Source: an uncultured Gemmatimonadales bacterium (GTDB lineage: Bacteria > Gemmatimonadota > Gemmatimonadetes > Gemmatimonadales > GWC2-71-9). Taken from it: 64,000 bases of DNA. The first letter of the stretch is position 1. Every line of letters begins with the position of its first letter. The stretch covers positions 1,621,504 through 1,685,503 of the forward strand of contig CAVOGH010000005.1 of NCBI GenBank assembly GCA_963695185.1. Direction: 5' to 3'. Below are positions 3,392 to 36,352 of the stretch, one piece after another. Position numbers and translations under genes: made by a program. A model generated the notes under the pieces. That model saw only the letters and a list, made by a program, of their open reading frames with translations, had not been told where the DNA came from and made no database searches.

Positions 3392-5420
3392 GCGCGTGCC
3401 CCGTCTCGGGAATCCTCCTCATGCTCCTGACCTGCCTCGCGGCCGCACCCCTTCAGGGCCAGATCTCCCCGGGACCCCTGGCCCGGGCCCACCGGACCCT
3501 CGAGGGGACGCGCCAACTGCGTGAAGTGCCACAGCGGAGGCCGCAACGCGCTGTCCGCGCAGTGCGCGTCCTGTCACCGGGACATCGGCTGGCTGGCCGA
3601 GCGGGAGCGCGGCTATCACGGAACCGCGGCGGTCCGGGCCCAGACCTGCGCCAGCTGCCACCCCGATCATGCCGGGAGCCGGCATTCGAGCTGGTGAAGT
3701 GGCCGGAGGGAAGCCCGGAACGGTTCGACCATCGCCGCGCCGGCTGGCCGCTGGAGCAGAGCCACGCCGACGCAAAGTGCGAGCGACTGCCACACCGCGC
3801 AATTCCAGGTAGGGCCCGGCCCGCGCACTGGCGGCCGGGCACGCAGGGCGGTCACTGGACCGGGCTGGAGTCGGGCTGCGCCAGCTGCCACGAGGACATC
3901 CACCGGGGCGCGCTGGGCGCCGACTGCCGTCAGTGCCACGATGCCGGGCGCTGGAAGGTGACGCCCGGGCTTCCGGCACGATACCACCAGCTATCCGCTG
4001 ACGGACAAGCATCGGCACCGTGGCCTGCGACAAGTGCCACCTCACCGCCGCGCTGGCCACCAAACGAGACCCCGCCGGCCATCCCGATTCCGGTCTATCG
4101 CCCGGTGCCACATCGGTCCTGCGCCAGCTGCCACCGGGACCCGCACGCGGGCCGCCTGGGTGAGTCCTGCACCGGGTGCCACACCACCCGAAGCTTCCAG
4201 GAGATCAACCGCGACAACTTCGATCACGACCGCACCCGGTACCCGCTGAAGGGCAAGCACGCCACGACGAAGTGCGCCGCCTGCCACGGCGACTTCTCCA
4301 CCGTGGCTCAGAAGAAGCCGGCCTACGCCACCTGCGCCAGCTGTCACGCCGACGCCCACAACAAGACCGGGACAGCTGGCGGGACAGGTCGAAGACTGCG
4401 GCACCTGCCACACCCTGGACGGCTTCTCCCCGGCCCGCCTGAGCCTGAGCACAGCATGCGCGGACCGCCTACCCGCTGGAGGGCAAGCACGCGCAGGTCC
4501 GCTGCGCCGCCTGCCACGGCAAGACGACCGGCACGCAGGCGGCGCGCTGGGGCAACGCCACGGGTGGTCCTGCAGCCCGCCTCGGCCACGTGCCGGTCCT
4601 GCCATGCCGACGATCACGGCACCCAGCTGGCCACCCGGCCCGATCGGGGAGAGTGCTCCGACCTGTCACACGCTGGCGGGGTGGACGCCCAGCCGATTCG
4701 ATGCCCAGGCCCACGCCCGGCTCAAGCTGCCGCTCGACGGCCGCCATGCGGAGGTTGGGTGCGCGGCCTGCCATGGGCCGTCGCGGCCCGGCCTGCCGCC
4801 GCTGGCCACCGGCCCCGCCATTGGCCGCGCGCAGTTCACCTTCCGGATCGCCGAGGTGGAGTGTGCCGCGTGCCACCAGGACCCTCACAGGTCGCGGTAT
4901 GCACCTGGGGGTGCCCTGCCAGTGGCGGGTGGCTGCGCCGCCTGCCACGACGCGCGGCAGTTCCGGCCCGCCAACGTCGCGGTCGCAGGCGCATGCCGAC
5001 TACGGCTTTGCGCTGGAGGGCGCCCACGGCGCCACGCCCGTGTGGCGGCTGCCACAAGGCCATCACCGCCACCGGAGCGCAGCCGCCCGGCCCTGCTGCG
5101 GCAGGCGGCGGTCCGACCGCTGGTGCTCGAGTCCACCCGCACCTGCGGCGAATGCCACAAGACGCCCCACGGCAGCCAGTTCGACTCGCGAGCCGATCGG
5201 CGGCCGCTGCGAGTCCTGCCACGGTACCGATCGCTTCAAGCCGGCGGACCGCTTCAACCACGACCGCGATGCCAGCTTCCGGCTCGGCGGCGGCCACGAG
5301 CGGGTGCCCTGCAATCGCTGCCACCCCACCGACGCGCCCGATGCCGGCGCTTCCCAGTTGCGATACCGCCCAGTCTCCGGCAAGTGCGAAAGCTGCCACG
5401 CCGGCAAGGAGGTCCGATGA
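3388..5420 (+). CDS. very large multihaem c-type cytochrome (~23 CxxCH by hand count), heavily frameshifted
   Basis: Signal-like N-terminus SGILLMLLTCLAAAPLQG. CxxCH motifs recur every ~25-30 codons but are spread over all three + frames (ORFs 3211.., 4590.., 4604..). Ends ...CESCHAGKEVR, stop at 5418..5420. Confidence 0.7.
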
Positions 5421-6667
5421 GAAACGCTCTGTGCGTCGCGCTGCTGCTCCTGTCGCCGGCCGGGCTCGCCGGTCAGGAGCGCACCCGATCTCCTCACGGC
5501 GAGCTGAGTGTCGCCTGCAACGTCTGTCACCGATCGGATAGCTGGACGGCGGTCCGAGTCGGCGGCAGCGGCGGATTTGACCACGGCCGGACGGGGATGC
5601 CGCTCACCGGCGCCCACGCCTCGGCCAGCTGCCGAGGCTGTCACGAGTCGCTCGACTTCAAGGGAACGGCAAGCACCTGTGCCAGCTGCCACCAGGACAC
5701 CCACCTCGGCGAACTCGGCGCCGACTGCAGCCAGTGCCACTCCACCCGGAGCTTCCTGGATCCCGGCGTCATGACCCGAGCGCATCAGCTCACCCGGTTC
5801 CCGCTGGTCGGCGCCCATCGAGCCGCCGACTGCACCGCGTGCCACTGCGCCCGCCGCCCAGGGACAGTTCCAGTTTGTCGGCCGGGCAACCGACTGCCTG
5901 AGCTGCCACCAGGCGGATTACCAGGGGGCCAGGGACCCCGATCACGCCGGCGGGGGATTCCCGACCGACTGCGCCCAGTGCCATGCCGTCACCGGTGGAA
6001 CCAGGCGCGGTTCAATCACGACCAGGCGGGCTTCCCGCTCACCGGCGCCCATCGGGCCACGCCCTGTGACCAGTGCCACGTCAACAGCCGCTTCACCGGC
6101 ACGCCGTCGGCCTGCGCCAGCTGCCACCAGGCCGACTACGACGGCACGACCGATCCGAACCACGCACAGGCCCAGTTCTCCACCGACTGCGTCGCCTGCC
6201 ACAGTACCACGTCCTGGAGCGGTGCCGCGTTCAATCATGCCCTGAGCGACTTTCCGCTCACCGGGGCACACCGCACCACGCCCTGCGACCAGTGCCATAC
6301 CAGCAACCGCTACACCGGCACCCCGACCGATTGTGCGGCCTGCCACCAGCAGGCCTACGACCAGACCAGCAACCCGGCCCACCAGCCGGCGGGCTTCCCG
6401 ACCGACTGCGCCTCGTGCCACACCACGACGCGCTGGGAGGGGGCCACCTTCGATCACGACGCACGCTTCTTCCGGATCTACAGCGGGAAGCACCGGAACG
6501 AATGGTCCAATTGCGCCACCTGCCACACGGAGGCCGCGGACTTCACCCAGTTCACCTGCCTGACGTGCCACGAGCACAACCAGACCAAGATGAACGACAC
6601 CCACAAGGGCAGGCAGGGATACCAGTACCTCAGCACGGAGTGCCTGCGATGCCATCCCCGGGTGTGA
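5417..6667 (+). CDS. 16-haem c-type cytochrome (doubled-CxxCH / cytochrome c7-like repeats)
   Basis: MRNALCVALLLLSPAGLAGQ signal. Sixteen CxxCH motifs counted. The ATG overlaps the upstream stop (ATGA). Two compensating frameshifts lie at about 5835-6000. Confidence 0.85.
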   Translation: MRNALCVALLLLSPAGLAGQERTRSPHGELSVACNVCHRSDSWTAVRVGGSGGFDHGRTGMPLTGAHASASCRGCHESLDFKGTASTCASCHQDTHLGELGADCSQCHSTRSFLDPGVMTRAHQLTRFPLVGAHRAADCTACHCARRPGTVPVCRPGNRLPELPPGGLPGGQGPRSRRRGIPDRLRPVPCRHRWNQARFNHDQAGFPLTGAHRATPCDQCHVNSRFTGTPSACASCHQADYDGTTDPNHAQAQFSTDCVACHSTTSWSGAAFNHALSDFPLTGAHRTTPCDQCHTSNRYTGTPTDCAACHQQAYDQTSNPAHQPAGFPTDCASCHTTTRWEGATFDHDARFFRIYSGKHRNEWSNCATCHTEAADFTQFTCLTCHEHNQTKMNDTHKGRQGYQYLSTECLRCHPRV

Positions 6668-13738: not shown

Positions 13739-14747
13739 TTAGCCGAGGGCGCCCAATTGGCGGCGCGCAAGCAATCCCGCGTCGGTGAGGTAGGCGGTGA
13801 TCAGCTCGGCGGGGGTGACATCGAAGGCGGGATTCCAGACACGAGGCGAGCGGGTGCCGCGACCGCGGTCCCCGCCATCTGCGCCACCTCCTCCGGACGG
13901 CGCTCCTCGATGGGGATCGCGGCGCCGGTGGCGGCGGCGGTATCGTAGGTGCTGCGAGGCGCAGCCACGTAGAACGGGACCCCATGGGCGCGGGCGGCCA
14001 GCGCCAGCGCGTAGGTCCCGATCTTGTTGGCGGTGTCGCCGTTGCGGGCGATCCGGTCGGCCCCGACGATGACGCAGGTGACCCCGCCCCGACGGAGTCG
14101 GCTGGCCGCCATGCCATCGGTGATGACCGTGACCGGCACGTCCGCCCGCGAGAGCTCCCAGGCGGTCAGCCGGCTGCCCTGGAGGAGCGGGCGGGTCTCG
14201 CAGGCCACCACGCTCACCTTGCCGTGCTGCTCGTGGGCCAGGTAGATGGGCGCCAGTGCGGTTCCGATGCCACCGGTGGCCAGTGCCCCGGCGTTGCAGA
14301 TCGTCATGACGGTCGCCCCGTCGGGAAGGAGCGGTAGTCCGGCCTCGCCGATGCGCTGGCACATTTCCCGGTCCTCGTCCCAGATGGCCTGGGCCTCCCG
14401 GAGCAGGGCCGCGGCGAGAGTCCCCCCGAAGCCGTCGCGGTGGCGTGGGCCACCCGACGCATCCTGCCCATGGCCCACGGGAGGTTCACGGCGGTGGGCC
14501 GGGTGGATTCCAGCTCATCGCAGGCCGCCAGCACCTCCCTCAGCCCGGCCGCCGGACGCCCGGCCGAGAGGGCCACGCCGAAGGCCGCCGTAATGCCGAT
14601 CAGGGGCGCACCGCGGACCCGCAGCTGCCGGATGGCCTCGGCGACGTCGGCCACGGTGGCCAGGTTCCGGTAGCACTCTTCCCCCGGCAGCAGGGTCTGG
14701 TCCAGGATGCGGAGCGCGCCGCCGGTGTACTCGATGGGTCGTAGCAT
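13739..14747 (-). CDS. mtnA: methylthioribose-1-phosphate isomerase (eIF-2B alpha/beta/delta family); 2-3 frameshifts
   Basis: [56 protein letters not shown] and [12 protein letters not shown]. Confidence 0.8.
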
Positions 14748-15926: not shown

Positions 15927-18269
15927 ATGAGACGGGTCGATCGGAGGACGTTCCTCAAGGGGGTCGGAGTGGTCTCCGCGGCGACGGCCGCCTCGGCGGT
16001 GGTCCCGGGCATGGCGCTCCCGGCAACGAGCCCGGCCTTGCCGGGCGAGTCCGGCACCGCCTGGCACAAGACGCCCTGTCGTCTCTGCGGGGTGGGGTGT
16101 GGCCTCCTGGTCGGGATCCAGAACGGACGGGCGGTAGCCGTGAAGGGGGATCCCGACTCGCCGGTGAGCAGGGGATTGGCCTGCGTGAAGGGCTACAACT
16201 CGGTGCATGCCCTCTACGGGGCCGATCGGCTCACGCGGGCCAAGGTACGACGGGATGGTGTGCTGGTCGAGGTGCCGCTGAGCGAGGCGCTCGACCTGGT
16301 GGCGCGCAAGCTCCGCGACACGGCCCAGCGGCATGGCAAGAACAGCGTGGCGGTCTACGGCTCGGCCCAGTGGACCATCCCGGACGCCTATATCGCCTCG
16401 AAGCTGTTCAAGGGCGCGCTGGGGACCAATAACGTGGAGACCAGCACACGCCTGTACGCCGCCAGTGGCATGGCAGGCCTCCAGACCAGCTTCGGTCTCG
16501 ATGGCACGATCGGCTGCTACGAGGACATCGAGCACGCCGACTTCTTTGTGTTGTGGGACATCAACCTGGCCGAAACCGACCCTGTGCTGTTCTCCCGCAT
16601 GCTGGACCGCAAGCGGGCCAACCCGGCGGTTCGCATCATCGATATCGCCACCCGTACCACCCGCACCAGTTACGCCTGTGATCACTCGCTGCTGCACGCG
16701 CCGCACGCGGGGCCGGCCATCGCCAATGGGGTCTGCCACGAGATCGTGGCGCGGAAGTGGGCACAGCGCGAGTTCCTCGATCAGCACGTCGCATTCAAGC
16801 GCGGCAGGACCAACATCGGCGACGGTCTCGCCGACGATGCCCTCCTCGCGGACGAGGCCACCGACGCCACCTGGAACGAGTACGTCGCCTTCCTGGCCGA
16901 CTACCAGCCGGAGCGCGCCCAGGAGCTGTGCGGCATGTCGGCGGCCAGCATCCGCTGGCTGGCGTCGCTCTACGGCGACCCGTTGCGCAAGGTGATGTCC
17001 CTCTGGGGTCAGGAGGTGAACCAGGATGTGCGCGGCACCTGGATGAACAACCTGCTCTACAACATTCATCTGCTGGTGGGCAAGGTCGCGACCCCGGGCA
17101 ACAGCCCCCTCTGCCTCACCGGGCAGCCCGGCGGCGGCAGCGGGGTGCACGATGCCGGCAGCCTGACCCACACGCTGCCCCGTGGGTTCGTGCAGAAGGA
17201 GGAGGACCGCCGCCGGGCCGCCGACATCTGGGGCGTACCGGCGGAGACCATCGACCCCCAGCCCACCGGCCCGGCGCTCTCGATGTTTCGCCGGCTGGAA
17301 CGGGGCGATATCCGGTTCCTCTGGATCTCGGCCACCGATCCGATGGTCAGCCTCCCCAACCTGGACCGCTACCGCCGTGCGGCGCGCAGCGGGGACCGCT
17401 TCATCGTCGTCTCGGAAGCCTACCCGACGCCCACGACGGACGTGGCGGACGTCGTTCTTCCCGCGGCGATGTGGCTGGAACGCGAGGGCATCTACGCCAA
17501 CGCGGAACGGCGCCTGCAGCACTTCGCGCGGATCGTGACGCCCCCCGGGGACGCGACCAGCGACGCCTGGCAGATGATCGAGGTCGCCCGACGGCTCGGT
17601 TTCGAGAAGCTCTTCCCCTTCGATTCCCGCCGTCACGTCGAGCAGATCTGGGAGGAGTACGGCCGCTTCCACCGGGAGCCACCCAGCGCGCTCCCGCCCC
17701 TCGCCGAACTGCGCGCCCAGCCGGGGGTGCTGTGGCCGTATGCGGCAGGCCGGGGAACCCGGTGGCGCTACAACGCCGCGCAGGACCCCGCGGCCGACGG
17801 TTCCCGAGGTGCCTTCGACTTCTACGGCCACCCGGACCACCGCGCGTGGATCTGGCTCCGCCCCTACGAGCCCCCGGCGGAGTCGCCAGACCGGGAGTAT
17901 CCGGTGTGGCTCACGACCGGCGCCGTGCTGGAACAATGGGGCACGGGCTCGATGACCCAGCGCATCCCGACGCTGCACCGCGCCCTGCCCCATGCATATG
18001 TCGAGATCAACAAGGACGACGCTCGCGACCTGGGCGTCCGGAATCGCGAGGCCGTCCGGCTGCTGAGCCGGCGCGGCTCGATCGAGCTCGAGGCCCGTAT
18101 CGACTATCGCTCTCAGCCGCCCCGCGGCCAGGTCTTCGTCCCCTCGTTCGATGAGGCGCGGCCGGTGAATCGGCTCACCCTGGACGCCTGCTGTCCGCTG
18201 TCGGGGCAGCCCGATGGCGGCAAGTGTGCGGTGCGGGTGGAGCGGCTGCCGGGCCGGGGCGGCCCGTGA
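15927..18269 (+). CDS. NapA-like periplasmic molybdopterin (bis-PGD) oxidoreductase with non-canonical Mo-ligand position
   Basis: Tat motif RRTFLKG and CRLCGVGCG...C 4Fe-4S motif. Collinear by eye with E. coli NapA along its full length. RHCMAS is replaced by RLYAAS. Intact 780 codons. Confidence 0.9.
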   Translation: MRRVDRRTFLKGVGVVSAATAASAVVPGMALPATSPALPGESGTAWHKTPCRLCGVGCGLLVGIQNGRAVAVKGDPDSPVSRGLACVKGYNSVHALYGADRLTRAKVRRDGVLVEVPLSEALDLVARKLRDTAQRHGKNSVAVYGSAQWTIPDAYIASKLFKGALGTNNVETSTRLYAASGMAGLQTSFGLDGTIGCYEDIEHADFFVLWDINLAETDPVLFSRMLDRKRANPAVRIIDIATRTTRTSYACDHSLLHAPHAGPAIANGVCHEIVARKWAQREFLDQHVAFKRGRTNIGDGLADDALLADEATDATWNEYVAFLADYQPERAQELCGMSAASIRWLASLYGDPLRKVMSLWGQEVNQDVRGTWMNNLLYNIHLLVGKVATPGNSPLCLTGQPGGGSGVHDAGSLTHTLPRGFVQKEEDRRRAADIWGVPAETIDPQPTGPALSMFRRLERGDIRFLWISATDPMVSLPNLDRYRRAARSGDRFIVVSEAYPTPTTDVADVVLPAAMWLEREGIYANAERRLQHFARIVTPPGDATSDAWQMIEVARRLGFEKLFPFDSRRHVEQIWEEYGRFHREPPSALPPLAELRAQPGVLWPYAAGRGTRWRYNAAQDPAADGSRGAFDFYGHPDHRAWIWLRPYEPPAESPDREYPVWLTTGAVLEQWGTGSMTQRIPTLHRALPHAYVEINKDDARDLGVRNREAVRLLSRRGSIELEARIDYRSQPPRGQVFVPSFDEARPVNRLTLDACCPLSGQPDGGKCAVRVERLPGRGGP

Positions 18270-19075
18270 GTGGCGACCGGCACCCGACGGCGGTCGCGCT
18301 GGGACTCTTCCTGGCGGCGGCCGCCGCCACGGCGGTGGCCGCGGGGAGCGTAGCGCTGAAACGCGGCGCCCAAGCGCGGGCGCGGGCGCCCGTGCTCGTC
18401 CCGGTCGGCATCGTGGCCGCGCCGGAGGAGCCGATCCATGCGGAGGCGCAGGTGTTCCGTACCACCCCCGCGATGCTGGCGCTGGTACCCGCGACTCGCC
18501 GGGAACGCTCGGCCCACCCGCGCACCCTGAAGACGGTACGCTTCCTCCGCGCCTATGAGGGCGCGCCCCCACGCATCCCGCACCCCCTCACGGCCGACGA
18601 GTTCCGCACCGACGCCTGCCGGACGTGTCATGAGCGTGGTGGCTACTCGGTGCGCTTCTCCGCGTACGTGCCGCTGACGCCGCACCCGGAACGCGGCATC
18701 TGTCTCCAGTGCCATGTGGGCGAGGACGCCGTCCTGGGCGTGGCCGAAGCCAGCAGGAATCCCAACTCCCGGTGTCCGCTCTGTCACGGGCCCAGCGGCG
18801 GCCCGGTCCGGGCCGCCGCCTCGGCGACGTGGCCGACGACGGTCTGGCCAAGGCTCTCCCCGAAGACACCGGACCGCGCCCCTCCGCCGGTCCCGCACGA
18901 CCTGCAGTACCGGCAGAACTGCCTCACCTGCCATGCCGGCCCCGCGGCCGTCGCCGAGATCCGCACCACTCACCCGGAGCGGGCCAACTGCCGCCAGTGC
19001 CATGTCCTGCTGGATCCGGAAGCAGAGGCCTTTGTTCGTCCCGCGGGAGTGGTCGCCTACGGAGATGCACCATGA
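18266..19075 (+). CDS. membrane-anchored pentahaem cytochrome with two NapB-like modules
   Basis: The GTG overlaps the napA-like stop (GTGA). It has a TM helix and five CxxCH motifs. Two modules match the NapB signature: PPRIPH...CRTCH...CLQCH and PPPVPH...CLTCH...CRQCH. Confidence 0.75.
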   Translation: MSGDRHPTAVALGLFLAAAAATAVAAGSVALKRGAQARARAPVLVPVGIVAAPEEPIHAEAQVFRTTPAMLALVPATRRERSAHPRTLKTVRFLRAYEGAPPRIPHPLTADEFRTDACRTCHERGGYSVRFSAYVPLTPHPERGICLQCHVGEDAVLGVAEASRNPNSRCPLCHGPSGGPVRAAASATWPTTVWPRLSPKTPDRAPPPVPHDLQYRQNCLTCHAGPAAVAEIRTTHPERANCRQCHVLLDPEAEAFVRPAGVVAYGDAP

Positions 19076-19797
19076 ACCAGACACTGTACGGGAGCGCCGT
19101 GGTGTGCGTTGCAGCGGCATGGCTGGTCTCCAGTTGCCGTCCGACCGACCCGGCGCATGGAAGTCCCGCGCCGGGGGAGACGGTCGCGGTGACGATCGAC
19201 TCGGCGACCGCGGCCCGGAACGCGACCCTTGAGCCCGGCGCGCTCGCGACCGTGCCCGCGGTCCCGGTCGAACGCTGGAAGGGACCGGGCGAGCGCCCCT
19301 TCGAGGTGGCTCTTCGGAGTGCCGTTCCCGAGGCCGGACACGCGCGCATGTTCGGCACCATCACGCTGCCGATCGCGCTCCGCAGCCGCACGGCTGCCAT
19401 CAACCAGTATCCCTGCACGTCCTGCCACCTCGGCCGGAAGGTGATCATGGCCAACCGCCGGATCGGCGATGCCCACAACAACATCCAGCCGGTGCACCCG
19501 GAACAGACCGGGGCCGTGTGTTCGACCTGCCACTCGGACGGCGACGTGGCGCTGCTGACCCTCAAGGGCGGGGAGCGGGCGACGCTGGATGAAAGCTACC
19601 GGCTGTGCGCGCAGTGTCATTTCCCGGAGGCGAAGACGTGGGCGGGCGGGGCGCACGGGAAGCGACTCGATGGCTGGCAGGGACGGCGAGTCGTGATGGC
19701 CTGCACCGACTGCCACGACCCGCACATGCCCGCGGTCGAGGTGCGCATCCCCTTCCGCGCGCCGGAACTCGAGCGCAGCCGCGGTGGCAGCCGATGA
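19072..19797 (+). CDS. tetrahaem c-type cytochrome lipoprotein
   Basis: ATGA overlap with the upstream stop. Lipobox LVSSC. Haem motifs CTSCH, CSTCH, CAQCH and CTDCH. Confidence 0.8.
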   Translation: MNQTLYGSAVVCVAAAWLVSSCRPTDPAHGSPAPGETVAVTIDSATAARNATLEPGALATVPAVPVERWKGPGERPFEVALRSAVPEAGHARMFGTITLPIALRSRTAAINQYPCTSCHLGRKVIMANRRIGDAHNNIQPVHPEQTGAVCSTCHSDGDVALLTLKGGERATLDESYRLCAQCHFPEAKTWAGGAHGKRLDGWQGRRVVMACTDCHDPHMPAVEVRIPFRAPELERSRGGSR

Positions 19798-20772
19798 CGG
19801 CCGAGCGATCACCCGGCGAGCCGACCGGCGCCGGAGACGCCAGCCTCCTGCAGAAGTGCGTCGACCGGCGCGGGGCACTGGGCATCCTCGCCGGGGGCAT
19901 GGCCGCCGGGATGCAGGCGGTGAGCGCGTGTACACCGCTCAGCGCCGAGACGGACGAGGAGCGCGAAGTCAAGCTCCTGGCCTGGCGGGAGTACATCAAG
20001 GGCAACTACCGCTTCATGACGGAGGCCGAGCGAGCGGAGACGATCGCCCGCCTCGAGCGCCTCGCCCAGCTGCAGCACGGCGTGGACGTTTCCATCCAGT
20101 CCACCGGCGCCCAGCCCGGCGTGGTGTTCGGCTACGCCTTCAACATCTCGAAGTGCAAGGGGTTCCGTCGCTGCATCGAAGCCTGCATCAACGAAAACAA
20201 CCTCGACCGCAATGCCGACACCCAGTACATCCGGATCTTCGAGATCGAGGACGGCAACGTGGATCTCGACGAGGGGGACGCGACCTTCCAGCACGAGGTG
20301 CCGGCGGAGGGCCACTTCTACCTGGGAACCCAGTGCTTCCAGTGCGCCAACCCGCCCTGCGTGAAGGTCTGCCCCGTCGGCGCCACCTGGCAGGAGCCCG
20401 ACGGCATCACGGTCGTCGACTACGACTGGTGCATCGGATGCCGCTACTGCATGGCCGCCTGCCCCTACTGGGCCCGGCGCTTCAACTGGGGCGATCCCGA
20501 GGTGCCGCCGGAGGAGGTCAACCCCAACCAGCACTACCTGGGGAATCGCGCCCGCATGAAGGGACGGGTCGAGAAGTGCACCTTCTGCATCCATCGCACC
20601 CGGCAGGGCCGCCTGCCCGGCCTGCGCCGAGGCGTGCCCCACCGGGGCGCGGGTCTTCGGCAACCTGCTGGATCCCGACTCGGAGATCCGGTGGGTGCTC
20701 GCCAACAAGCGGGTGTTCCGGCTGAAAGTGGATCTGAAGACCGAGCCGCGCTTCTGGTACTTCAGCGATTGA
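19794..20772 (+). CDS. NrfC/DmsB-type 4x[4Fe-4S] protein, copy 1; one frameshift near 20618
   Basis: ATGA overlap with the upstream stop. Tat-like DRRGALGILAGG. Four Cys clusters (CKGFRRCIEAC, CFQCANPPCVKVCP, CIGCRYCMAACP, CTFC...ACAEACP). Confidence 0.85.
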
Positions 20773-20779
20773 GGTAACG

Positions 20780-22069
20780 GTGCATCTGCGGCCTTTCCTC
20801 GCGAACGCCCTGGAGTCGGCCACCAACGGTGGCCGGCGCTACCACCTGTGGATGGCACTGCTCACGCTGATCATGCTCGTCGGCGCCTATGCGTACTCGG
20901 TCCAGTGGCGGTATGGACTCAGCGTCACCGGTATGAACGACCATGTGAGCTGGGGGCTCTACATCTCCAACTTCACGTTCCTGGTCGGGCTGGCCGCCGC
21001 CGCGATGATGCTGGTCCTGCCGGCGTACATCCTGGAGGACGTGGATTTCGGCCGGGCCGTGCTCATGGCGGAAGCCGTCGCCGTGGCCGCGCTGGTCATG
21101 TGTCTCGGCTTTGTGGTCGTGGATCTGGGCAACCCGCTGGGGTCCTGGCACCTGACGCCCGGCATCGGCTATCTCAACTGGCCCCGGTCGCTCCTGGCCT
21201 GGGACGTGATCGTGCTGAACGGCTACCTGGCGCTCAACCTGGCCATCCCGTTCTACATCCTCTACACCCGCTATGCCGGCCGCTCGCCGGCCAAGCACAA
21301 GTACCTGCCGTGGATGTACATCTCCGCGATGTGGGCGGTGAGCATTCACCTGGTCACGGCGTTTCTCCTGGCGGGGCTGCCGTCCCGGCCATTCTGGAAC
21401 ACGGCGCTGCTGGGACCCCGCTTCCTGGCCTCGGCCTTCACCGCCGGCCCGGCATTCGTGATCCTCCTCCTGTATTTCATCCGGCGGACCACGAGGTATC
21501 CCATCACCGACGGCGCGTTCGCCAAACTGGCCCTGATCACGACCGTCGCCTCGCAGGTCAACATCATGATGCTGATCTCCGAGTTGTTCTACAAGTTCTA
21601 CTCCCCGACGCATCACGGCATCAACGCCAAGTATCTCTTCTTCGGGCTGGGCGAGCACCACGCGCTGGTCCCGTGGATCTGGACCGGGATCGGGCTGAGC
21701 ATCGTGGCCACGATCATCCTCATGATGCATCCCCTGCGGCGCGATCCCCGCTGGCTGATGCCGGCCTGTGCCATGCTGTTTGTCGGGATCTGGATCGAGA
21801 AGGGGATCGGCCTGGTGGTGCCCGGCTTCATCCCCTCGCCCCTGGGAGAGATCGTCGAGTACACCCCGACCTGGGTGGAGCTGTGCGTGACCGCCGGGGT
21901 CTGGGCGCTGGGCCTGTTCGTCCTGACCATCCTGGTGCGGGTCGCCCTGCCGATCGAGCTGGGGGACGTGCGAAGCCCGTACCTGGAAGCCCCGCCGCCC
22001 GCCCGGGGCCTCCGCCCGCGCGCCGTCCGCGCCCGGTATGAGGACATCCGGCCGGTCCGGAAACGCTGA
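20780..22069 (+). CDS. NrfD/PsrC-family polytopic quinol-interacting membrane subunit, copy 1
   Basis: Intact 429 codons with about 10 hydrophobic helices, 8 nt after nrfC-like copy 1. Family call made from overall pattern. Confidence 0.8.
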   Translation: MHLRPFLANALESATNGGRRYHLWMALLTLIMLVGAYAYSVQWRYGLSVTGMNDHVSWGLYISNFTFLVGLAAAAMMLVLPAYILEDVDFGRAVLMAEAVAVAALVMCLGFVVVDLGNPLGSWHLTPGIGYLNWPRSLLAWDVIVLNGYLALNLAIPFYILYTRYAGRSPAKHKYLPWMYISAMWAVSIHLVTAFLLAGLPSRPFWNTALLGPRFLASAFTAGPAFVILLLYFIRRTTRYPITDGAFAKLALITTVASQVNIMMLISELFYKFYSPTHHGINAKYLFFGLGEHHALVPWIWTGIGLSIVATIILMMHPLRRDPRWLMPACAMLFVGIWIEKGIGLVVPGFIPSPLGEIVEYTPTWVELCVTAGVWALGLFVLTILVRVALPIELGDVRSPYLEAPPPARGLRPRAVRARYEDIRPVRKR

Positions 22070-22121
22070 TTGCGACCGCCGGCGCCGCGCCGGCTGACTT
22101 TTCTTCTGCGAGGTAAGACAC

Positions 22122-23097
22122 ATGACCAGACATCGGCCCAACGACACCCGGTATTCGTTCGCCGCTCTCGCCGCCGGGCTGGTGGGGGCGGCCGGGCTGG
22201 CGGGCGGACTGTTCCTCGCGGGCATCGCCCGCCCGGTCGCGGCCGTGGCGGGCCTGGCCCTGGGCGTGCTGCTCGCCGCCTCGATCAAGTACACGGACCA
22301 GTGGGAGAAGGCCGTCGTGCTGCGGCTGGGCCGGTACCAGGGCCTGCGCGGTCCCGGCTCTTCGGCGTCGTGCCGATCATCGACCGGGTGAGCTACCACA
22401 TCGACCAGCGGATCCGGACGACCGCGTTCGGCGCCGAGTCGTGCCTGACGCGGGACACGGTGCCGGTGAACGTGGATGCCATCGCGTTCTGGATCGTGCG
22501 CGACGCCGAGCGGGCGGCGCTCGAGGTGCAGGACTACGAGCAGGCCGTCATGCTCGCCGGCGCAGACCGCGCTCCGCGACGCCATCGGCAAGCACGACCT
22601 GGCGGAGCTGATCCAGTCGCGCGAGGAGCTCGGCCACGGGCTCGAAGATGGCGCTGGACCAGAAGATGCACGACTGGGGGATCCAGGTGCAGTCGGTGGA
22701 GATCCGCGACGTCATCATCCCGGAGGCGCTCGAGGACGCCATGTCCCGCCAGGCGCAGGCGGAGCGGGAGCGGCAGGCGCGCATCATCCTCGGCACCGCC
22801 GAGACGGAGATCGCCTCACAAGTTCGTCGAGGCGGCGAACGGCTACCGCGACCACCCGGTCGCCATGAACCTGCGCGCCATGAACATGCTGTACGAGAGC
22901 ATCGTGAAGCGGGGCTCGCTCATGGTGGTGCCGTCGGGGCTGGCCGACTCGCTCAACGTCCCCTCCATGATGGGCATGATGGGCGCCGGCGGCCTGGTGC
23001 CGCGAGACGGCGAGGGCCGCGCGGCCCTTACGCATGGCGGCGAGGGTGCCGGACCGGCAAGGGGACGGCCCCGCATGTGGCCAGTGAAGCACCCTAG
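22122..23097 (+). CDS. SPFH/band-7 (stomatin-like) membrane protein, copy 1; about 4 frameshifts
   Basis: TM helix followed by YTDQWEKAVVLRLGRY..., VDAIAFWIV and QAERERQARII. The tail GKGTAPHVASEAP in the frame of ORF 22648..23097 parallels the copy 2 tail GHGKEPEVTGRK. Confidence 0.75.
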
Positions 23098-23211
23098 GGA
23101 CCGCCGGCCGCGAGGCAGGCGGCCCCGCTTGCCGAGCGTCAGGCTGGCGCGGCATCCAGCCGCGAATGCCCTACGGGCGCCGGGACTCGAACGAACCAGG
23201 AGCCCTGACCG

Positions 23212-24192
23212 ATGAGCACGAGCCGCACACCGAGGTGCCCGACAGCGCCGATGACGGCACGGTGCTGCAGAAACGGGTCGATCGGCGCGAAGGCGATGGG
23301 CCTCCTGCTGGGCGGGCGTGGCCACCGGCGCGGCCGCGGTAAGCGCGTGTACGCCGCTCTCTGCGGCGACGCCCGAAGAGCGCGAACTGAAGCTGCTCGA
23401 ATGGCAGCAGTTCTTTCAGAAGCACTATCGCCGCATGACCGCGGAGGAGCGTGCCGAGACCGTCCAGCGGCTCGAGCGGCTGGCCAAGCTCCACCACGAT
23501 CAGGACGTCACCATCGCCACATCTGACGCCATACCCGGAGTGCTCTTCGGTTATGCCTTCAACATCTCGAAGTGCAAGGGGTACCGGCGCTGTGTCGAGG
23601 CCTGCATCAATGAAAACAACCTCGACCGGGAAGCCGACACGCAGTACATCCGGATCTTCGAAAAGGAAAGTGGTGTTGTCGATCTCAACCACGCGGACGC
23701 GACCTACCAGCACGAAGTGCCGGCGGAGGGCCACTTCTATATCGGGACCCAGTGCTTCCAGTGCGCCAACCCGCCCTGCGTTCCGGTCTGCCCGGTGGGC
23801 GCCACCTGGCAGGAGCCCGACGGCATCGTGGTCATCGACTACAACTGGTGCGTTGGATGCCGCGCCTGCATGGCCGCCTGCCCCTACTGGGCCCGGCGCT
23901 TCAACTGGGACGTGCCCGAAGTGCCCCTGCAGGAGGTCAACCCCGACCAGCATTACCTCGGGAATCGCGCCCGCAAACAGGGCTGCACCGAGAAGTGCAC
24001 GTTCTGCATCCATCGCACCCGGCAGGGCCGTCTGCCGGCGTGCGTCGGAGGCGTGCCCCACCGGGGCGCGGATCTTCGGCAACCTGCTGGATCCCGATTC
24101 CGAGATCCGCTGGGTGCTGGCCAACAAGCCGGTCTTCCGCCTGAAGGAAGGATTGCGGGACGGAACCGCGCTTCTGGTACTTCACCGACTGA
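23212..24192 (+). CDS. NrfC/DmsB-type 4x[4Fe-4S] protein, copy 2; about 4 frameshifts
   Basis: ORF 23318..24241 is collinear with copy 1 and has the same four Cys clusters. The N-terminus (MSTSRTP.. / TVLQKRVDRR / KAMGLLLGG) is split over three frames. Another shift lies near 24047. Confidence 0.75.
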
Positions 24193-24199
24193 GGCGATC

Positions 24200-25496
24200 A
24201 TGCACCTCAGAGCCTTCCTCGTGAGTGCGCTGGGGCGGTGACCTCAGGCGGACCGCCGCTACCACCTCTGGATGGGCGGGCTGACGGCCATCATGCTCCT
24301 CGGGGGCTACGCGTACTTCGTTCAGGTCACCGACGGGCTCGGCGTCACGGGCATGAACGACCACGTGAGCTGGGGGTTGTACATCTCCAACATGGCGTTC
24401 CTCGTCGGGGTCGCGGCCGCGGCGGTGATCCTGGTGATGCCGGCATACGTCCTGCACGACGTCGACTTCAGCAAGGCGGTGCTCATCGCGGAGGGGGTCG
24501 CGGTCTCCGCCCTGGTCATGTGCCTCGGCGTTCGTCATGGCCAACAGCCCCGGCCTCCCGTTGCAAGTGGTGGCGCCTCACACCGGTCGTCGGACTGCTG
24601 AACTGGCCCGACTCGATGCTGGCGTGGGACGTGATCGCCCTGAACGGCTACCTGGTGCTGAACCTCGCCATCCCGTTCTACATCCTCTACAGCCACTATG
24701 TCGGGCGGGAGCCGGCGAAGCACAAGTACGTGCCCTTCATCTACCTGTCGGTCGCGTGGGCGGTGAGCATTCACCTCATCACCGCGTTCCTCTTCGCCGC
24801 CCCGCCGGCGCGGCCCCTGTGGAACTCGCCGCTGCTCGGTCCCCGTTTCCTGGCCTCGGCCTTCACGGCCGGGCCCGCCTTCATGATCCTGCTGCTCGGG
24901 TTCATCAGGTCCAACAGCCGTTACCCGATTTCGGACGTGGCGATCAGCCAAGCTGGCCACCGTCACCACCGTCGCTGCGCAGATCAACCTGGTGATGCTC
25001 TTTTCCGACCTGGTGTTCGAGTTTCGCTTTCCCGACGCATCACAGCCTGAGCGCCCGGTATCTCTTCTTCGGCCTGGGCGAGCACCACGCGCTGGTCCCG
25101 TGGATCAGGACGGCGATCGCGCTCAACGTCACCGCCACGGTCATCCTCATGATGCATCCCCTGCGGCGCATCCCGCGCTGGTTGATGCCGGCCTGCGCCA
25201 TGCTGTTTGTCGGGATCTGGATCGAGAAGGGGATCGGCCTGGTCATTCCCGGCTTCATCCCGTCGCCCCTGGGGGAGATCGTCGAGTACACCCCGACCTG
25301 GGTGGAGCTGTGCGTGACCGCGGGCATCTGGGCGCTGGGCCTGTTCGTCCTGACCATCCTGGTGCGGGTCGCCCTGCCGATCGAACTGGGGGACGTGCGA
25401 AGCCCGTACCTGGAAGCCCCGCCGCCCGCCCGGGGCCTCCGCCCGCGCGCCGTCCGCGCCCGGTATGAGGACATCCGGCCGGTCCGGAAACGCTGA
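24200..25496 (+). CDS. NrfD/PsrC-family membrane subunit, copy 2; at least 4 frameshifts
   Basis: Pieces in ORFs 24272.., 24238.., 24992.. and 25149..25496 are collinear with copy 1. The last ~60 codons are identical to copy 1. Confidence 0.7.
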
Positions 25497-25548
25497 TTGC
25501 GACCGCCGGCGCCGCGCCGGCTGACTTTTCTTCTGCGAGGTAAGACAC

Positions 25549-26475
25549 ATGACCAGACATCGGCCCAACGACACCCGGTATTCGTTCGCCGCTCTCGCCG
25601 CCGGGCTGGTGGGGGCGGCCGGGCTGGCGGGCGGACTGTTCCTCGCGGGCATCGCCCCCCCGGTCGCGGCCGTGGCGGGCCTGGCCCTGGGCGTGCTGCT
25701 CGCCGCCTCGATCAAGTACACCGACCAGTGGGAGAAAGCCGTCCTCCTGCGGCTGGGCCGCTACCGGGGCCTGCGCGGTCCCGGCTACTTCGGCATCGTG
25801 CCGATCATCGACCGGGTGGCCTACACCATCGATCAGCGGATCCGGACCGCGGCGTTCGGCGCCGAATCGTGCCTGACCCGGGACACGGTGCCGGTGAACG
25901 TCGATGCCATCGCGTTCTGGATCGTGCGCGACGCCGAGCGGGCGGCGCTGGAGGTGCAGGACTACGACGAGGCAGTCATTCTCTCGGCCCAGACCGCCCT
26001 CCGCGACGCCATCGGCAAGCACGACCTGGCCGAGCTGATCCAGTCGCGCGTGGAGCTCGGCCATGGGCTCGAGATGGCGCTGGAGCAGAAGATGACGAAC
26101 TGGGGCATCCACGTGCAGTCGGTGGAGATCCGCGACGTCATCATCCCCGCCGCCCTCGAGGACGCCATGTCCCGGCAGGCGCAGGCCGAACGGGAACGGC
26201 AGGCCCGCATCATCCTCGGCACAGCCGAGACGGAGATCGCCCACAAGTTCGTCGAGGCGGCCGCCGCCTACCGCGACCACCCCGAAGCCATGAACCTGCG
26301 GGCCATGAACATGCTGTACGAGAGCATCGTCAAGCGGGGCTCGCTCATGGTGGTGCCGTCGGGCCTGGCCGACTCGCTGAACGTCCGCTCGGTGATGGGA
26401 GCCGTGGGGAATACGGCGCTGCTGCCGCCGGTGGCAGGGCATGGCAAGGAGCCGGAGGTGACCGGCCGAAAGTAG
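25549..26475 (+). CDS. SPFH/band-7 (stomatin-like) membrane protein, copy 2
   Basis: Intact 308 codons with the same 52-nt spacer after nrfD-like as in copy 1. Confidence 0.85.
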   Translation: MTRHRPNDTRYSFAALAAGLVGAAGLAGGLFLAGIAPPVAAVAGLALGVLLAASIKYTDQWEKAVLLRLGRYRGLRGPGYFGIVPIIDRVAYTIDQRIRTAAFGAESCLTRDTVPVNVDAIAFWIVRDAERAALEVQDYDEAVILSAQTALRDAIGKHDLAELIQSRVELGHGLEMALEQKMTNWGIHVQSVEIRDVIIPAALEDAMSRQAQAERERQARIILGTAETEIAHKFVEAAAAYRDHPEAMNLRAMNMLYESIVKRGSLMVVPSGLADSLNVRSVMGAVGNTALLPPVAGHGKEPEVTGRK

Positions 26476-28620: not shown

Positions 28621-30562
<1,942 letters not shown>

Positions 30563-30570
30563 TGAACGGA

Positions 30571-30642
30571 GCCATCCGCTATCGCTATCCGGGCGGCGAA
30601 GTCCCGCTCCGTGCACTCGGATAGCTCATAGCGGATAGCGGC
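30571..30642. repeat. heptad-based palindromic intergenic element (GCTATCG/CGGATAGC family), copy A
   Basis: gccatCCGCTATCGCTATCCG...CGGATAGCtcatAGCGGATAGCGGc lies immediately after the gyrB stop. Related to the element at 44191..44248. Confidence 0.6.
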
Positions 30643-30858: not shown

Positions 30859-32188
30859 CTACTCCGACAGCGGCTCGACGCCGCCGGCACTGACCCGATA
30901 GAGCAGCAGCGGCGAGACCGGCACCGGCGGCCCGATGCGGATTGCCGCGCTGAGCGCCGCGAGGCCCACCTCGATGCCGGCGCGGTCGGCGGCGAAGACG
31001 GAGGCGATGGGCTCGTCCTTCTGGACCTTCGCCCCCGGCCGGGCCGACACCACGAACCCCACGCTGTGATCGATGGGATCGCCCAGGCGCCGCCGCCCGC
31101 CCCCCATCGCAATCACGGCCTCACCCAGGGCACGGGGATCCACCGACTGGACGGTGCCGGCGGCCGGCGCCTCGAACAGCTCCACCTCCTGGGCCTGGGG
31201 CAAGGCGGCGGGGTCGTCCACGATGGCGGGATTGCCGCCCTGGGCTTCGATGAGCGCGGCGAACTTGTCGCGGGCGCCTCCGGCCATGAGGCCGTCGGCC
31301 ACCAGCCGCTCCGCCTCCGCGGTACTGTCGGCCACCCCGGAGAGCCGCAGCATCTCGACGCCAAGCGCACCGGTCACCTGCAGCAGGTCGGCGGGCCCCT
31401 GCCCCTCCAGAGCGAGCAGCGCCTCCTCCACCTCGAGGGCGTTGCCGATGGCCCGCCCCAGGGGGCGGTCCATGGCGGTCACCAGCGCCACAGTCGGGCA
31501 GCCGTGGGCCGCACCGATATCCACCATGGTCCGGGCCAGTTCCAGCGCCTGGGCCGGCTCGGTCATGAAGGCCCCGCTGCCGGTCTTCACGTCGAGCACC
31601 AGCCCGGTCAGGCCTTCGGCGAGCTTCTTGGACATGATGCTGGCGGCGATGAGGGGGATGGAGGGCACCGTGCCGGTCACGTCACGCAGGGCGTACAGAC
31701 GGCGATCGGCCGGCACGATGCGCTCGGTCTGGCCGAACATCGCCACGCCGATGCGCTCGAGCTGGGCCTCGACCTCCTCGCAGGGTGAGGTCGGTCCGGA
31801 ACCCGGGAATGGCCTCGAGCTTGTCGGTGGTGCCGCCGGTGTGGCCCAGCCCGCGGCCGGACATCATCGGCACTTCGACGCCGCAGCTGGCCACCAGCGG
31901 GGCGAGGACCAGCGACGTCTTGTCGCCCACCCCGCCGGTGGAGTGCTTGTCCACCCGGGAGCGGCCCGGCGCAGCGGGGAGCAGCCGGTCGCCCGACTCG
32001 AGCATCGCCCGGGTGAGTTCCGCCAGTTCGGCCGGTGCCAGCCCGCGCCAGACGACCGCCATGAGGAGTGCCGCCATCTGGTAGTCCGGAACCCGGTCCG
32101 CAAGGTAATCCGCGAGGGCGCCGGTCCAGGCTCCGACCGGGAGGGGATAGCCGTCCCGCTTGGTTTCGATCAGTCGGGTAAAGTGCAC
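30859..32188 (-). CDS. deoA: thymidine / pyrimidine-nucleoside phosphorylase; one frameshift
   Basis: IETKRDG, MAALLMAV, DKHSTGGVGDKTSLVLAP, MMSGRGLGHTGGTTDKLE, RDVTGTVPSIPLIAASIMSKK and LDVKTGSGAF. Confidence 0.85.
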
Positions 32189-32331
32189 GGAGCTGGGGCC
32201 GAAGGCTGCCGGATCAGTGGGACGCGAGTAGATTCCGGGTGGAGTCTCCACTTTCCCGGACCGTCCGCAAGTGGGGCACCTCCCTGCCCGGCCGCCGGCC
32301 ACCCTCCCGAGACCCTTGACCTCGAGCCGTC

Positions 32332-33470: not shown

Positions 33471-34250
33471 ATGACCGCCACGACCGCCGTACCCGAAGAG
33501 ACCGGCCGCCTGCAGGCCCGCATCGCGGAGCTGGAGCAGGAGCGCCGGAACCTGCTGGCCATCATCGAGATCCTGCAGGAGATCGCGGGATCGCTGCACT
33601 TCGTGGACATCATGCAGTCCATCGCGAGGCGACTGGGCGAGGCGTTCGGCCTGGACCGGTCCTCGATCTTCCTGGCCGAGCGGGACGGCCAGACCGCCCG
33701 GCTGGTGGCGAGCTTCGAGGATCCCAGCATTCGCAATTACGTGGTGGACCTGGACCGCTACCCGGAACTCCGCCGGGCGCTCCGCGACGGCGAGACCGTC
33801 TTCATCCCCGACGTGGAACTCGATCCGGCCCTGACGCACCTGCGCGGCACCTTCGAGTCCCGGCGAGTGCGCACCCTGACGGTGATTCCCATTACCTGGC
33901 GGGGCGCGGCCATCGGCGCCATCATGCTGCGCACCTTCCGGGACGGACCGGCCTTCTCCGAGGCCGACCTGCGCTTCTGCCAGGTGGTGGCCGGGCTCAC
34001 GGCCAAGGCGCTGCGCAACGCCCACCGCTTCGAGCGGCTGCAGCACCGCGTGGGGGTGCCCTCCGGCAGCCACACCCGTGAGCGGGAGCGGGTGGCGCTG
34101 ATCGGGTTCCTGCGGCGCCTGGTGGACGAATTCGTGGCCCGCGACGGCCCGTGGAGCGAGGGCAGCCTGGCCCGCGCCAGCGCCGAGGAGATTGACCGCC
34201 TGGTGGGCGTGGCGCTCACGGTCATCTCCCAGGAAGCCTCGGCCCGATAG
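33471..34250 (+). CDS. GAF-domain protein
   Basis: Intact 259 codons with an N-terminal coiled coil and a GAF-like core (LQEIAGSL...SSIFL...LTVIPI...GAIML). Confidence 0.6.
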   Translation: MTATTAVPEETGRLQARIAELEQERRNLLAIIEILQEIAGSLHFVDIMQSIARRLGEAFGLDRSSIFLAERDGQTARLVASFEDPSIRNYVVDLDRYPELRRALRDGETVFIPDVELDPALTHLRGTFESRRVRTLTVIPITWRGAAIGAIMLRTFRDGPAFSEADLRFCQVVAGLTAKALRNAHRFERLQHRVGVPSGSHTRERERVALIGFLRRLVDEFVARDGPWSEGSLARASAEEIDRLVGVALTVISQEASAR

Positions 34251-34345
34251 CGGGCGGGTGCGCAGCGGGCTCGGCGCCGGTGGACGATCGCCCGCCCGCC
34301 ACGCCCGGCCCCGACTCCCGGCCACCGTTCCCCATCCACGCTTCC

Positions 34346-36352
<2,007 letters not shown>

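Follow-up and report, generated by a model that had tools for sequence, protein, structure and literature searches.

We analyzed a stretch of 64,000 nucleotides (nt; the window, G+C content 70%) on contig CAVOGH010000005.1 of an uncultured Gemmatimonadales bacterium, in which nine co-oriented genes or gene-equivalents form a block (Table 1). They encode a subunit of the NapA family of molybdenum bis(pyranopterin guanine dinucleotide) (Mo-bisPGD) enzymes, two multihaem cytochromes c, and two sets of an iron-sulfur (FeS) protein, an NrfD-family membrane protein and an SPFH protein. An original prediction, made from the DNA alone, had described a nine-gene respiratory operon that connects a NapA-like catalytic subunit to NrfCD-type quinol modules through two novel cytochromes. 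Analysis of open reading frames (ORFs) and domains bears out the number, order and common strand of the genes. The start/stop overlaps that had been read (GTGA at 18266, ATGA at 19072 and ATGA at 19794) are exact, as are the nrfC-nrfD gaps of 7 and 8 nt in the two copies. Searches with Pfam and NCBIfam models agree with the claimed domain content, with Molybdopterin, Molydop_binding and Fe4S4 domains and a twin-arginine translocation (Tat) motif in the first product and Fer4, NrfD and Band_7 domains among the remaining products. The block is thereby supported as a coherent, co-oriented and translationally coupled respiratory cluster. What had been overlooked is that the NapA-like subunit has Tyr177 in place of the cysteine that binds molybdenum in NapA. 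The Gemmatimonadota clade without this cysteine, to which the window protein belongs, is a more surprising element than the architecture of the cluster.

The canonical nap accessory genes had been reported as absent from the window. A motif scan of the window revealed no further NapC-like tetrahaem protein and no NapF/G/H-type ferredoxin motif, and domain scans of the larger ORFs found no nap accessory domain. The claim thus holds for napC, napGH and napF, while a NapD of about 90 residues was not exhaustively excluded by these scans. As predicted, an NrfD-family module, its FeS partner and nine c-type haems are present at the locus in place of NapC/NapGH. A scan for a sigma-70-like promoter detected none in this 70% GC region, which tells nothing either way.

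Table 1. Genes and spacer elements of the block, with positions in the window (aa, amino acids; TM, transmembrane)
Feature	Position	Strand	Basis
NapA-family Mo-bisPGD-type subunit, 780 aa; Tat signal, intact N-terminal [4Fe-4S] motif, Tyr177 in place of the Mo-ligand Cys	15927..18269	+	Pfam, NCBIfam, alignment to 3ML1_A/2NYA_A, ligand column in 78 orthologues
Membrane-anchored pentahaem cytochrome c (cytochrome 1), 269 aa; two NapB-like dihaem modules and a Gemmatimonadota-specific insert with the fifth haem	18266..19075	+	Five CxxCH, N-terminal TM helix, NapB profile matches, internal repeat
Tetrahaem c-type lipoprotein (cytochrome 2), 241 aa; signal peptide, lipobox VSSC22	19072..19797	+	Four invariant CxxCH, invariant Cys22
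FeS protein copy 1 (nrfC1), DsrO/NrfC-like; Tat motif, 15 Cys in cluster motifs; frame broken by a 1-nt insertion at 20616	19794..20772	+	
NrfD-family membrane subunit copy 1 (nrfD1), DsrP/ActC-like, about 10 TM helices, intact	20780..22069	+	PF03916 107.6 bits, DsrP model 403 bits, nearest PDB entries ACIII ActC
Spacer between nrfD1 and SPFH1: GC-rich hairpin, then a T-run	22078..22094	+	
SPFH/Band-7 protein copy 1, four or five single-base indels	22122..23097 (end approximate)	+	
FeS protein copy 2 (nrfC2), five single-base indels	23212..24191	+	
NrfD-family membrane subunit copy 2 (nrfD2), six single-base indels	24200..25496	+	
Spacer between nrfD2 and SPFH2: GC-rich hairpin, then a T-run	25505..25521	+	
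SPFH/Band-7 protein copy 2, 308 aa, one N-terminal TM helix, intact	25549..26475	+	PF01145 122.9 bits

The closest solved relatives of the NapA-like subunit are heterodimeric NapA proteins (3ML1_A, 620 bits; 2NYA_A, 603 bits). In an ungapped and well-flanked alignment, the C. necator sequence NARHCMAS, which contains the Mo ligand Cys152, corresponds to STRLYAAS in the window, where the tyrosine codon is TAC. A genome scan with the window protein gave 80 loci (numbered with the prefix L), and the ligand column was compared in 78 orthologues. No cysteine is found there in 30 sequences, the window protein and 29 relatives, which have Tyr (24), Ala (3), Phe (2) or His (1). It is present in all 46 other cluster-linked orthologues and in NapA of E. 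coli and C. necator. The 30 Cys-less sequences form one clade in a neighbour-joining tree, and all of them are labelled Gemmatimonadota except L010 and L017, whose bins are named Acidimicrobiaceae and Zixiibacteriota. Sister to this clade are two Cys-bearing lineages, L030, from a Gemmatimonadales metagenome-assembled genome (MAG), and L027, labelled 'uncultured bacterium'. Both already have the pentahaem cytochrome, and L030 also has the SPFH gene. The Cys-less clade is large and abundant, with at least 120 clusters at 90% identity. All 14 proteins that were sampled from the top 120 database matches, which are 73-86% identical to the window protein, also lack the Mo-ligand cysteine, and most of them carry the source name 'nitrate reductase NapA'.

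Further residues of the active site were lost with the cysteine. In the cryogenic electron microscopy structure of CjNapA, Cys176 is the Mo ligand, Lys79 is the relay, and the channel is lined by Arg174, Asp191, Glu192, Arg463, Arg471 and His715 (PMC12769810). The window protein has retained the equivalents of Arg174 and Asp191, while those of Glu192, Arg463, His715 and Arg471 are Gly, His, Gly and Thr. In the numbering in which the ligand is Cys152, Met153, Glu168, Arg392 and His700 are lost in all 30 sequences, and Lys/Arg400 is replaced by Thr in the clade. Because these Mo- and nitrate-binding residues have been lost, the subunit probably does something other than nitrate reduction. Against the NapA equivalog model NF010055 (cut-off 904 bits), the window protein scores 739.6 bits and its relatives L002 and L021 score 726 and 700 bits, so that all three fail, whereas five Cys-type relatives from five phyla pass with 924-975 bits. 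The window protein also fails TIGR01706, with 722.0 bits against a cut-off of 930.55 bits. The protein at this locus thus fails two defining features of NapA, the Mo-ligand cysteine and the score of the hidden Markov model.

It could be argued that the subunit is still a respiratory nitrate reductase, in which the Mo center works without cysteine or with another residue as its substitute, and that the locus is the Gemmatimonadota version of a new Nap architecture. The partners are indeed the same as in Cys-type clusters, including those of the sister lineages L027 and L030, and a C176D variant of CjNapA keeps some activity (PMC12769810). However, the Phe and Ala found at the ligand position in part of the clade cannot coordinate Mo, and the channel residues Glu168, Arg392, Lys/Arg400 and His700 have gone along with the cysteine. 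The name NapA is given to these proteins in databases and in genome surveys, and surveys of Gemmatimonadota treat napAB genes as nitrate reductase genes (PMC11316326), yet the proteins score 160-200 bits under the NCBI NapA cut-off, which relatives in seven other phyla pass. We consider continued nitrate reduction at this locus improbable.

The NapA-like subunit is under strong purifying selection. The ratio of nonsynonymous to synonymous substitution rates (dN/dS) of its gene is 0.11-0.17 within the Cys-less clade, which is the lowest of the block. There are 295 columns with at least 95% conservation in the Cys group; the Cys-less clade keeps 195 of them, loses 42 and is intermediate at 58. 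The window protein has the Tat motif RRVDRRTFLK, the [4Fe-4S] motif C51, C54, C58 and C86, and K88, and each of these is shared by all clade sequences that span the respective column. Lys88, Arg175 and Gln400 are kept in 30 of 30 sequences and Asp192 in 29. Fourteen positions are fixed differently between the Cys and Cys-less groups, with new residues that are mostly smaller or acidic (among them H193D, G186D, C388G, E393D, V394A and H700G).

The two cytochromes had both been called novel. For the first this does not stand, since it is a NapB duplication. A profile built from 54 orthologues matches the NapB chains of R. sphaeroides, C. necator and H. influenzae (1OGY_B, 2.6e-8; 3ML1_B, 2.7e-7; 1JNI_A, 4.9e-6), and the two halves of the window protein align with each other at 34% identity (E = 4e-8). 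The single-sequence score against the Pfam NapB model is below the cut-off (21.9 versus 25.1). These profile matches and the internal repeat, which uphold the predicted assembly from two NapB-like modules, indicate that cytochrome 1 is a membrane-anchored tandem NapB. It carries five haems in Gemmatimonadota and four in other phyla, and the additional one lies in the insert between both NapB modules. For the second cytochrome the description holds to the extent that the tetrahaem lipoprotein has no sequence relative among solved structures, as its profile gave only marginal haem-motif matches in the PDB (E >= 1e-3). An AlphaFold2 model from an alignment of 58 sequences had a mean predicted local distance difference test score of 43.8 and was too poor for a fold search.

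The quinone module had been assigned to the NrfCD type, and here the result is different. Though a polytopic NrfD protein does lie beside a Tat-exported four-cluster ferredoxin, as in the quinone-interacting modules of CISM-type complexes, the pair is DsrOP-like and not of the E. coli NrfCD type. The FeS protein, with Fer4_11 and related domains and a DRRGAL Tat motif, scores 119.5 bits against the E. coli-type NrfC model TIGR03149 (cut-off 377.6 bits). Its closest model is DsrO, which is just missed (191 versus 200 bits), and its nearest solved relatives are ArrB, PsrB and ActB. The NrfD subunit passes the NCBI DsrP model (403 versus 350 bits). Its nearest solved relatives are the ActC chains of alternative complex III (ACIII; 6F0K_C, 6LOD_C and 8K9E_C). 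Neither NrfA nor NrfB is found in the block, which does not belong with E. coli-type NrfC/NrfD systems. The second SPFH protein has its TM helix at residues 35-53 and belongs to the SPFH/Band-7 family by its PF01145 match. Among the 80 loci, an SPFH gene accompanies the cluster only in Gemmatimonadota.

Some further features of these proteins are worth recording. Both FeS proteins (19794-19940 and 23212-23360) combine a twin-arginine motif (DRRGAL and DRRE..., respectively) with a lipobox-like AVSAC just past the hydrophobic stretch, and because of this combination they may be Tat-exported lipoproteins. Their first cluster motif has only three cysteines (C-x5-C-x3-C), which is also the case in FeS subunits with a [3Fe-4S] cluster. 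The NrfD subunit is over the DsrP cut-off of 350 bits, with 359-420 bits, in organisms without dsr genes, including flavobacteria (window 20780-22069; L071 14702-15973; L002 18397-19686). This match reflects a family resemblance and is a likely source of 'DsrP' misannotation in organisms that do not reduce sulfate.

The five-gene core, consisting of the NapA-type subunit, cytochrome 1, cytochrome 2, the FeS protein and the NrfD subunit in the same order, was found by tblastn in about 65 of the 80 loci, and several others are cut by contig ends. Thus, the recurrence for which a survey of gene neighborhoods had been proposed is real, and the arrangement is not peculiar to the window. The hosts belong to at least eight phyla and include Gemmatimonadota, Bacteroidota, Desulfobulbales, Rokubacteria, Acidobacteriota (Bryobacterales), Ignavibacteria, Planctomycetia and Oligoflexia. 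Cultured Polaribacter, Tenacibaculum, Mariniflexile, Flavivirga and Pontimicrobium are among the Bacteroidota, and a Desulfurivibrio isolate is among the Desulfobulbales. No napC, napGH or napF gene accompanies the five-gene core. In the Pontimicrobium locus (L071), moeA and a mobA-like gene adjoin the cluster; NapD was not found in the flanks of this locus or of L056. Outside crown Gemmatimonadota, the catalytic subunit is likely a bona fide NapA, and the complex is probably a quinol:nitrate oxidoreductase, with the NrfD/FeS pair taking the place of NapC/NapGH.

We found no description of this architecture, or of the Cys-less clade, in the open-access literature. The term Nap architecture is justified for the relatives in other phyla, but not for the window locus, whose protein fails the cysteine and model cut-off of NapA. 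The review of NrfD complexes by Calisto & Pereira catalogues no Nap-linked complex. The Nap of D. alkaliphilus has been described as a 'novel type' without NapB (Thorup et al. 2017, PMC5516251), though it is not confirmed to be of the same locus type as L056. In two Planctomycetota MAGs, a cluster of multihaem, 4Fe4S, NrfD and ActD genes lies downstream of nap genes (Suarez et al. 2023, PMC10732223), and cable bacteria have a classical napFDDAGHB operon. All parts of the present cluster are of known kinds, and it is their combination that is absent from the nap operon types discussed in the open-access papers and from the catalogue of NrfD complexes.

The comparison with these known systems can be made part by part. 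The cluster resembles NapAB systems with NapC or NapGH in its periplasmic location, in its Tat-exported NapA-type subunit with an N-terminal [4Fe-4S] cluster and in the NapB-type dihaem modules that are the immediate partner. It differs from the operons napEDABC, napFDAGHBC, napAGHBFLD and napCMADGH in having no NapC, NapG, NapH or NapF. Moreover, NapB is doubled within one membrane-anchored protein, a tetrahaem lipoprotein is added, an NrfD-family protein paired with a DsrO-like FeS protein makes up the quinone module, and this locus has neither the Mo-ligand cysteine nor the nitrate-channel residues. With E. coli NrfABCD it shares the path from an NrfD-family subunit through a periplasmic four-cluster FeS protein and a multihaem relay to a soluble periplasmic reductase. 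Unlike in that system, the terminal enzyme is of the NapA type, not NrfA, and the cytochromes are unrelated to the NrfB pentahaem protein.

The likeness to DsrMKJOP lies in the NrfD subunit, which passes the DsrP model, and in the FeS protein, which is closest to DsrO; the difference is that the hosts of the present cluster include aerobic flavobacteria and Gemmatimonadota. Synteny and domain scans found no DsrM, DsrK or DsrJ in the window or in the 80 related loci, and other dsr genes are likewise absent. We therefore rejected an assignment to the Dsr complex, as there are no dsrMKJ genes.

The original prediction had also pointed to ACIII (ActABCDEF) and Qrc (QrcABCD). The comparison is apt, given the ActC chains as nearest solved relatives of the NrfD subunit, and the same four kinds of parts are present, namely a molybdopterin-family protein, an FeS protein, an NrfD-like protein and a multihaem cytochrome. 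Like QrcB and ActB, the Mo-family subunit of the window has no catalytic ligand. Unlike them, it descends from NapA and retains the FeS cysteines and the Tat signal. In contrast to ACIII, the Mo-like and FeS genes are separate and not fused as in ActB, there is a single NrfD-type gene per unit, and ActD and ActE are missing. The QrcB, QrcC and QrcD models give scores of 67, 153 and 64, which are far under their cut-offs of 440, 400 and 570. Membership in ACIII or Qrc was rejected, since the defining subunits are absent and the resemblance exists at the level of parts only.

We suggest that the block encodes one membrane-bound periplasmic redox complex. The NrfD-family subunit, which is DsrP/ActC-like and has no cofactors, would exchange electrons with the quinone pool by oxidizing quinol or reducing quinone. 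Electrons would then be taken on by the Tat-exported four-cluster FeS protein, handed to the tetrahaem lipoprotein, from there to the tandem-NapB cytochrome, and finally to the NapA-type subunit at its [4Fe-4S] cluster. The SPFH protein probably scaffolds or stabilizes the complex in the membrane. For the NapA-type subunit at this locus, we favor, tentatively and at slightly less than even confidence, a remodelled enzyme. It would retain its pterin cofactor in a remodelled and enlarged pocket with no protein ligand to Mo, and would act on another, probably uncharged or larger, substrate instead of being a canonical nitrate reductase. This is favored because the FeS cysteines and the Lys relay are invariant, the replacements are small and dN/dS is very low. 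For the Cys-less clade as a whole, the pocket residues were lost in the same way, and the cofactor may have been kept and the substrate changed. Gene content, synteny, residue losses and purifying selection are shown by the data, and the order of electron transfer, the retained cofactor and the new substrate are inferences.

There is precedent for an active enzyme of this kind. Arsenite oxidase AioA is a functional Mo-bisPGD enzyme without a protein ligand to Mo, and has a non-coordinating residue at the ligand position. The window subunit shares only this precedent with AioA, as a score of 98 bits against the arsenite_ox_L model (cut-off 359 bits) indicates no specific sequence relationship, and AioA, unlike the window subunit, has a [3Fe-4S] cluster and a Rieske partner.

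Several points weigh against the reading of a remodelled enzyme. The residues at 152, 153 and 392 are not fixed but vary within the clade (Y/A/F/H, A/G/S/H and H/N/Q/E, respectively), which fits relaxed constraint at a dead site equally well. The Pfam pterin-binding domain scores are about 25% below those of Cys-type relatives, though still strong. The idea of a rebuilt pocket with a retained cofactor draws on a handful of residues with known roles. In addition, the order of electron carriers is taken by analogy from NapAB, NrfBCD and ACIII, and the role given to the SPFH protein is a guess.

Those variable catalytic positions could instead point to a NapA-like subunit without catalytic activity, comparable to QrcB or the ActB1 domain. 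In that case, the complex would be an ACIII/Qrc-like quinol:cytochrome c (or cytochrome:quinone) oxidoreductase, perhaps one that serves the neighboring multihaem cytochromes. The set of components is that of Qrc and ACIII, with the NrfD subunit closest to ActC, and the root-to-tip distance in the neighbour-joining tree is greater for the Cys-less clade (0.50 versus 0.39). However, QrcB and ActB have lost the [4Fe-4S] cysteines, the relay lysine and related conserved residues, whereas the four cysteines, the relay lysine, R175, D192 and Q400 are kept here in 29-30 of 30 sequences. Two thirds of the NapA-invariant columns are also kept, at the lowest dN/dS of the block, and the replacements are mostly smaller residues and not the bulky fillers that would be expected of an empty cofactor cavity. 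In about 25 Gemmatimonadota loci, the cluster has a linked gene for a multihaem cytochrome of about 485 residues, and two giant multihaem genes (about 37 CxxCH) lie nearby in the window, which would suit a silent subunit. The linked gene also stands beside the Cys-type L030, so that it is not specific to the Cys-less form. We regard a silent subunit as unlikely, and continue to favor the remodelled enzyme.

These considerations bear on the crown Gemmatimonadota 'NapA' clade as a whole. It is possible, though doubtful, that this clade is an evolutionary intermediate, in which a quinol:nitrate oxidoreductase lost its Mo ligand and is now either a Mo enzyme that has no protein ligand and uses another substrate or an ACIII/Qrc-like electron-transfer complex of independent origin, with the five-gene architecture as an unrecognized Nap system. 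With its ActC/DsrP-like subunit, that system may be energy-conserving. As a rule, periplasmic nitrate reduction is seen as coupled to the non-electrogenic NapC or to NapGH. If a widespread Nap is wired through an ActC/DsrP-like NrfD protein, a class that has been proposed to translocate ions, the bioenergetic balance of nitrate respiration would have to be revised for flavobacteria, Desulfobulbales, Rokubacteria and other groups. In soil, Gemmatimonadota rank with the most common bacteria, and surveys routinely count their 'napA' when they infer nitrate-reducing potential. If the crown-clade protein is no nitrate reductase, such inferences are wrong, and a check of the ligand column would correct them. 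The Cys-less clade also represents a natural experiment in the loss or change of the metal ligand of Mo-bisPGD enzymes, and is relevant to how the cofactor-less subunits of ACIII and Qrc arose.

The last six genes had been described as two rounds of nrfC, nrfD and an SPFH gene. Both rounds are present, and what had been missed is their nature as a tandem duplication, whose period is 3.42-3.43 kb and whose copies are 65-100% identical. Copies 1 and 2 of the window are 84-86% identical to the same-numbered copies in L002, L004 and L006, where both are intact, while the cross-comparison gives 79-80%. The duplication predates these species, because each copy is orthologous to its same-numbered counterpart, and it is ancestral in a Gemmatimonadales subclade. 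Within the window, identity between the copies is 65-89% in nrfC and most of nrfD, and 90-100% in the 3' end of nrfD, in the spacer and in the SPFH gene. L002 has the same pattern (window 21730-22930 versus 25160-26400; L002 15820-17020 versus 19360-20560), and we therefore infer gene conversion that keeps the SPFH copies homogeneous. The 52-nt nrfD-SPFH spacer contains a GC hairpin of five pairs with a T-run after it. Its conservation extends over 17 loci, and one pair covaries from C-G to U-A in five sequences. Possible roles of the hairpin are attenuation, partial termination or mRNA stabilization that sets the SPFH:NrfD ratio.

Other duplications of the system were also seen. The Gemmatimonadota locus L033 (5775-6014) has a different arrangement, in which nrfC-nrfD is followed by a fragment of the tetrahaem gene and by nrfC-nrfD-SPFH; because of this difference, the quinone module must have been duplicated more than once. 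Two complete Cys-less copies of the cluster occur on two contigs (L019 and L040) of one Gemmatimonadaceae MAG (JBBDYA01), so that paralogy of the whole cluster exists beside the tandem duplication.

The frameshifts in nrfC1, SPFH1, nrfC2 and nrfD2 had been overlooked. In comparison with three orthologous loci, these genes contain about 17 window-specific 1-nt indels (Table 1), whereas the NapA-like gene, both cytochrome genes, nrfD1 and SPFH2 are clean. Read at face value, and given that the indels are not in homopolymers, this could mean that the duplicated part, and through the broken nrfC1 the whole system, is decaying into pseudogenes. The remainder of the window speaks otherwise. A codon-usage Viterbi scan over the 64 kb counted about 57 places where the frame switches with no stop codon close by. 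They are densest at 2.5-12 kb and 22.3-25.1 kb, and the same scan gave none in L002, L003 and L012. Essential single-copy genes are split in the same manner, including ligA (34102-36349) and gyrB (28621-30600), in which the HATPase and GyrB domains are in one frame and Toprim is in another. A pyrimidine-nucleoside phosphorylase gene (30862-32329, - strand), a mtnA-like gene (13801-14747, - strand) and the multihaem genes are also split. Two other long-read MAGs, L005 and L011, have 11 and 18 switches, concentrated in the same duplicated region. Removal of the indels leaves nrfC2, nrfD2 and SPFH1 free of premature stops, and in comparison with the L002 orthologues they give dN/dS values of 0.12-0.18, as intact genes do. 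Gene decay is therefore very improbable. The indels are almost certainly errors of assembly or polishing, because gyrB and ligA are split alike and the repaired genes show this dN/dS, and thus all nine genes are probably intact in the cell. The sequence looks like that of an imperfectly polished long-read MAG, and for this reason gene calls here need frameshift-tolerant methods.

The position of the block differs from that in its relatives. In L001-L005, L011 and L022, it lies between a gene with a CcmE domain and the gene of the multihaem cytochrome of about 485 residues. In the window, these two genes are adjacent (2-250, + strand; 373-802, - strand), and the 10.5-kb block is 15 kb away, flanked by an enoyl-CoA hydratase gene and by recF-dciA-gyrB. 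Because of this difference, the block has either moved as a unit or the contig is misjoined. A mobile-element cargo was considered and rejected, since there is no tRNA gene and no integrase or flanking repeats were noticed, though the block has moved. Closer to the start of the window, two very large c7-type multihaem cytochrome genes (3400-6660, + strand), which together hold the CxxCH motifs mentioned above, are followed by a conserved hypothetical gene. Upstream of them, on the - strand, are a gene for a ferredoxin-fused FAD/NAD(P) oxidoreductase (840-2225) and a CcmE-like gene. This whole gene set is syntenic in L001-L005, L011 and L022 and may be an extracellular or periplasmic electron-transfer module.

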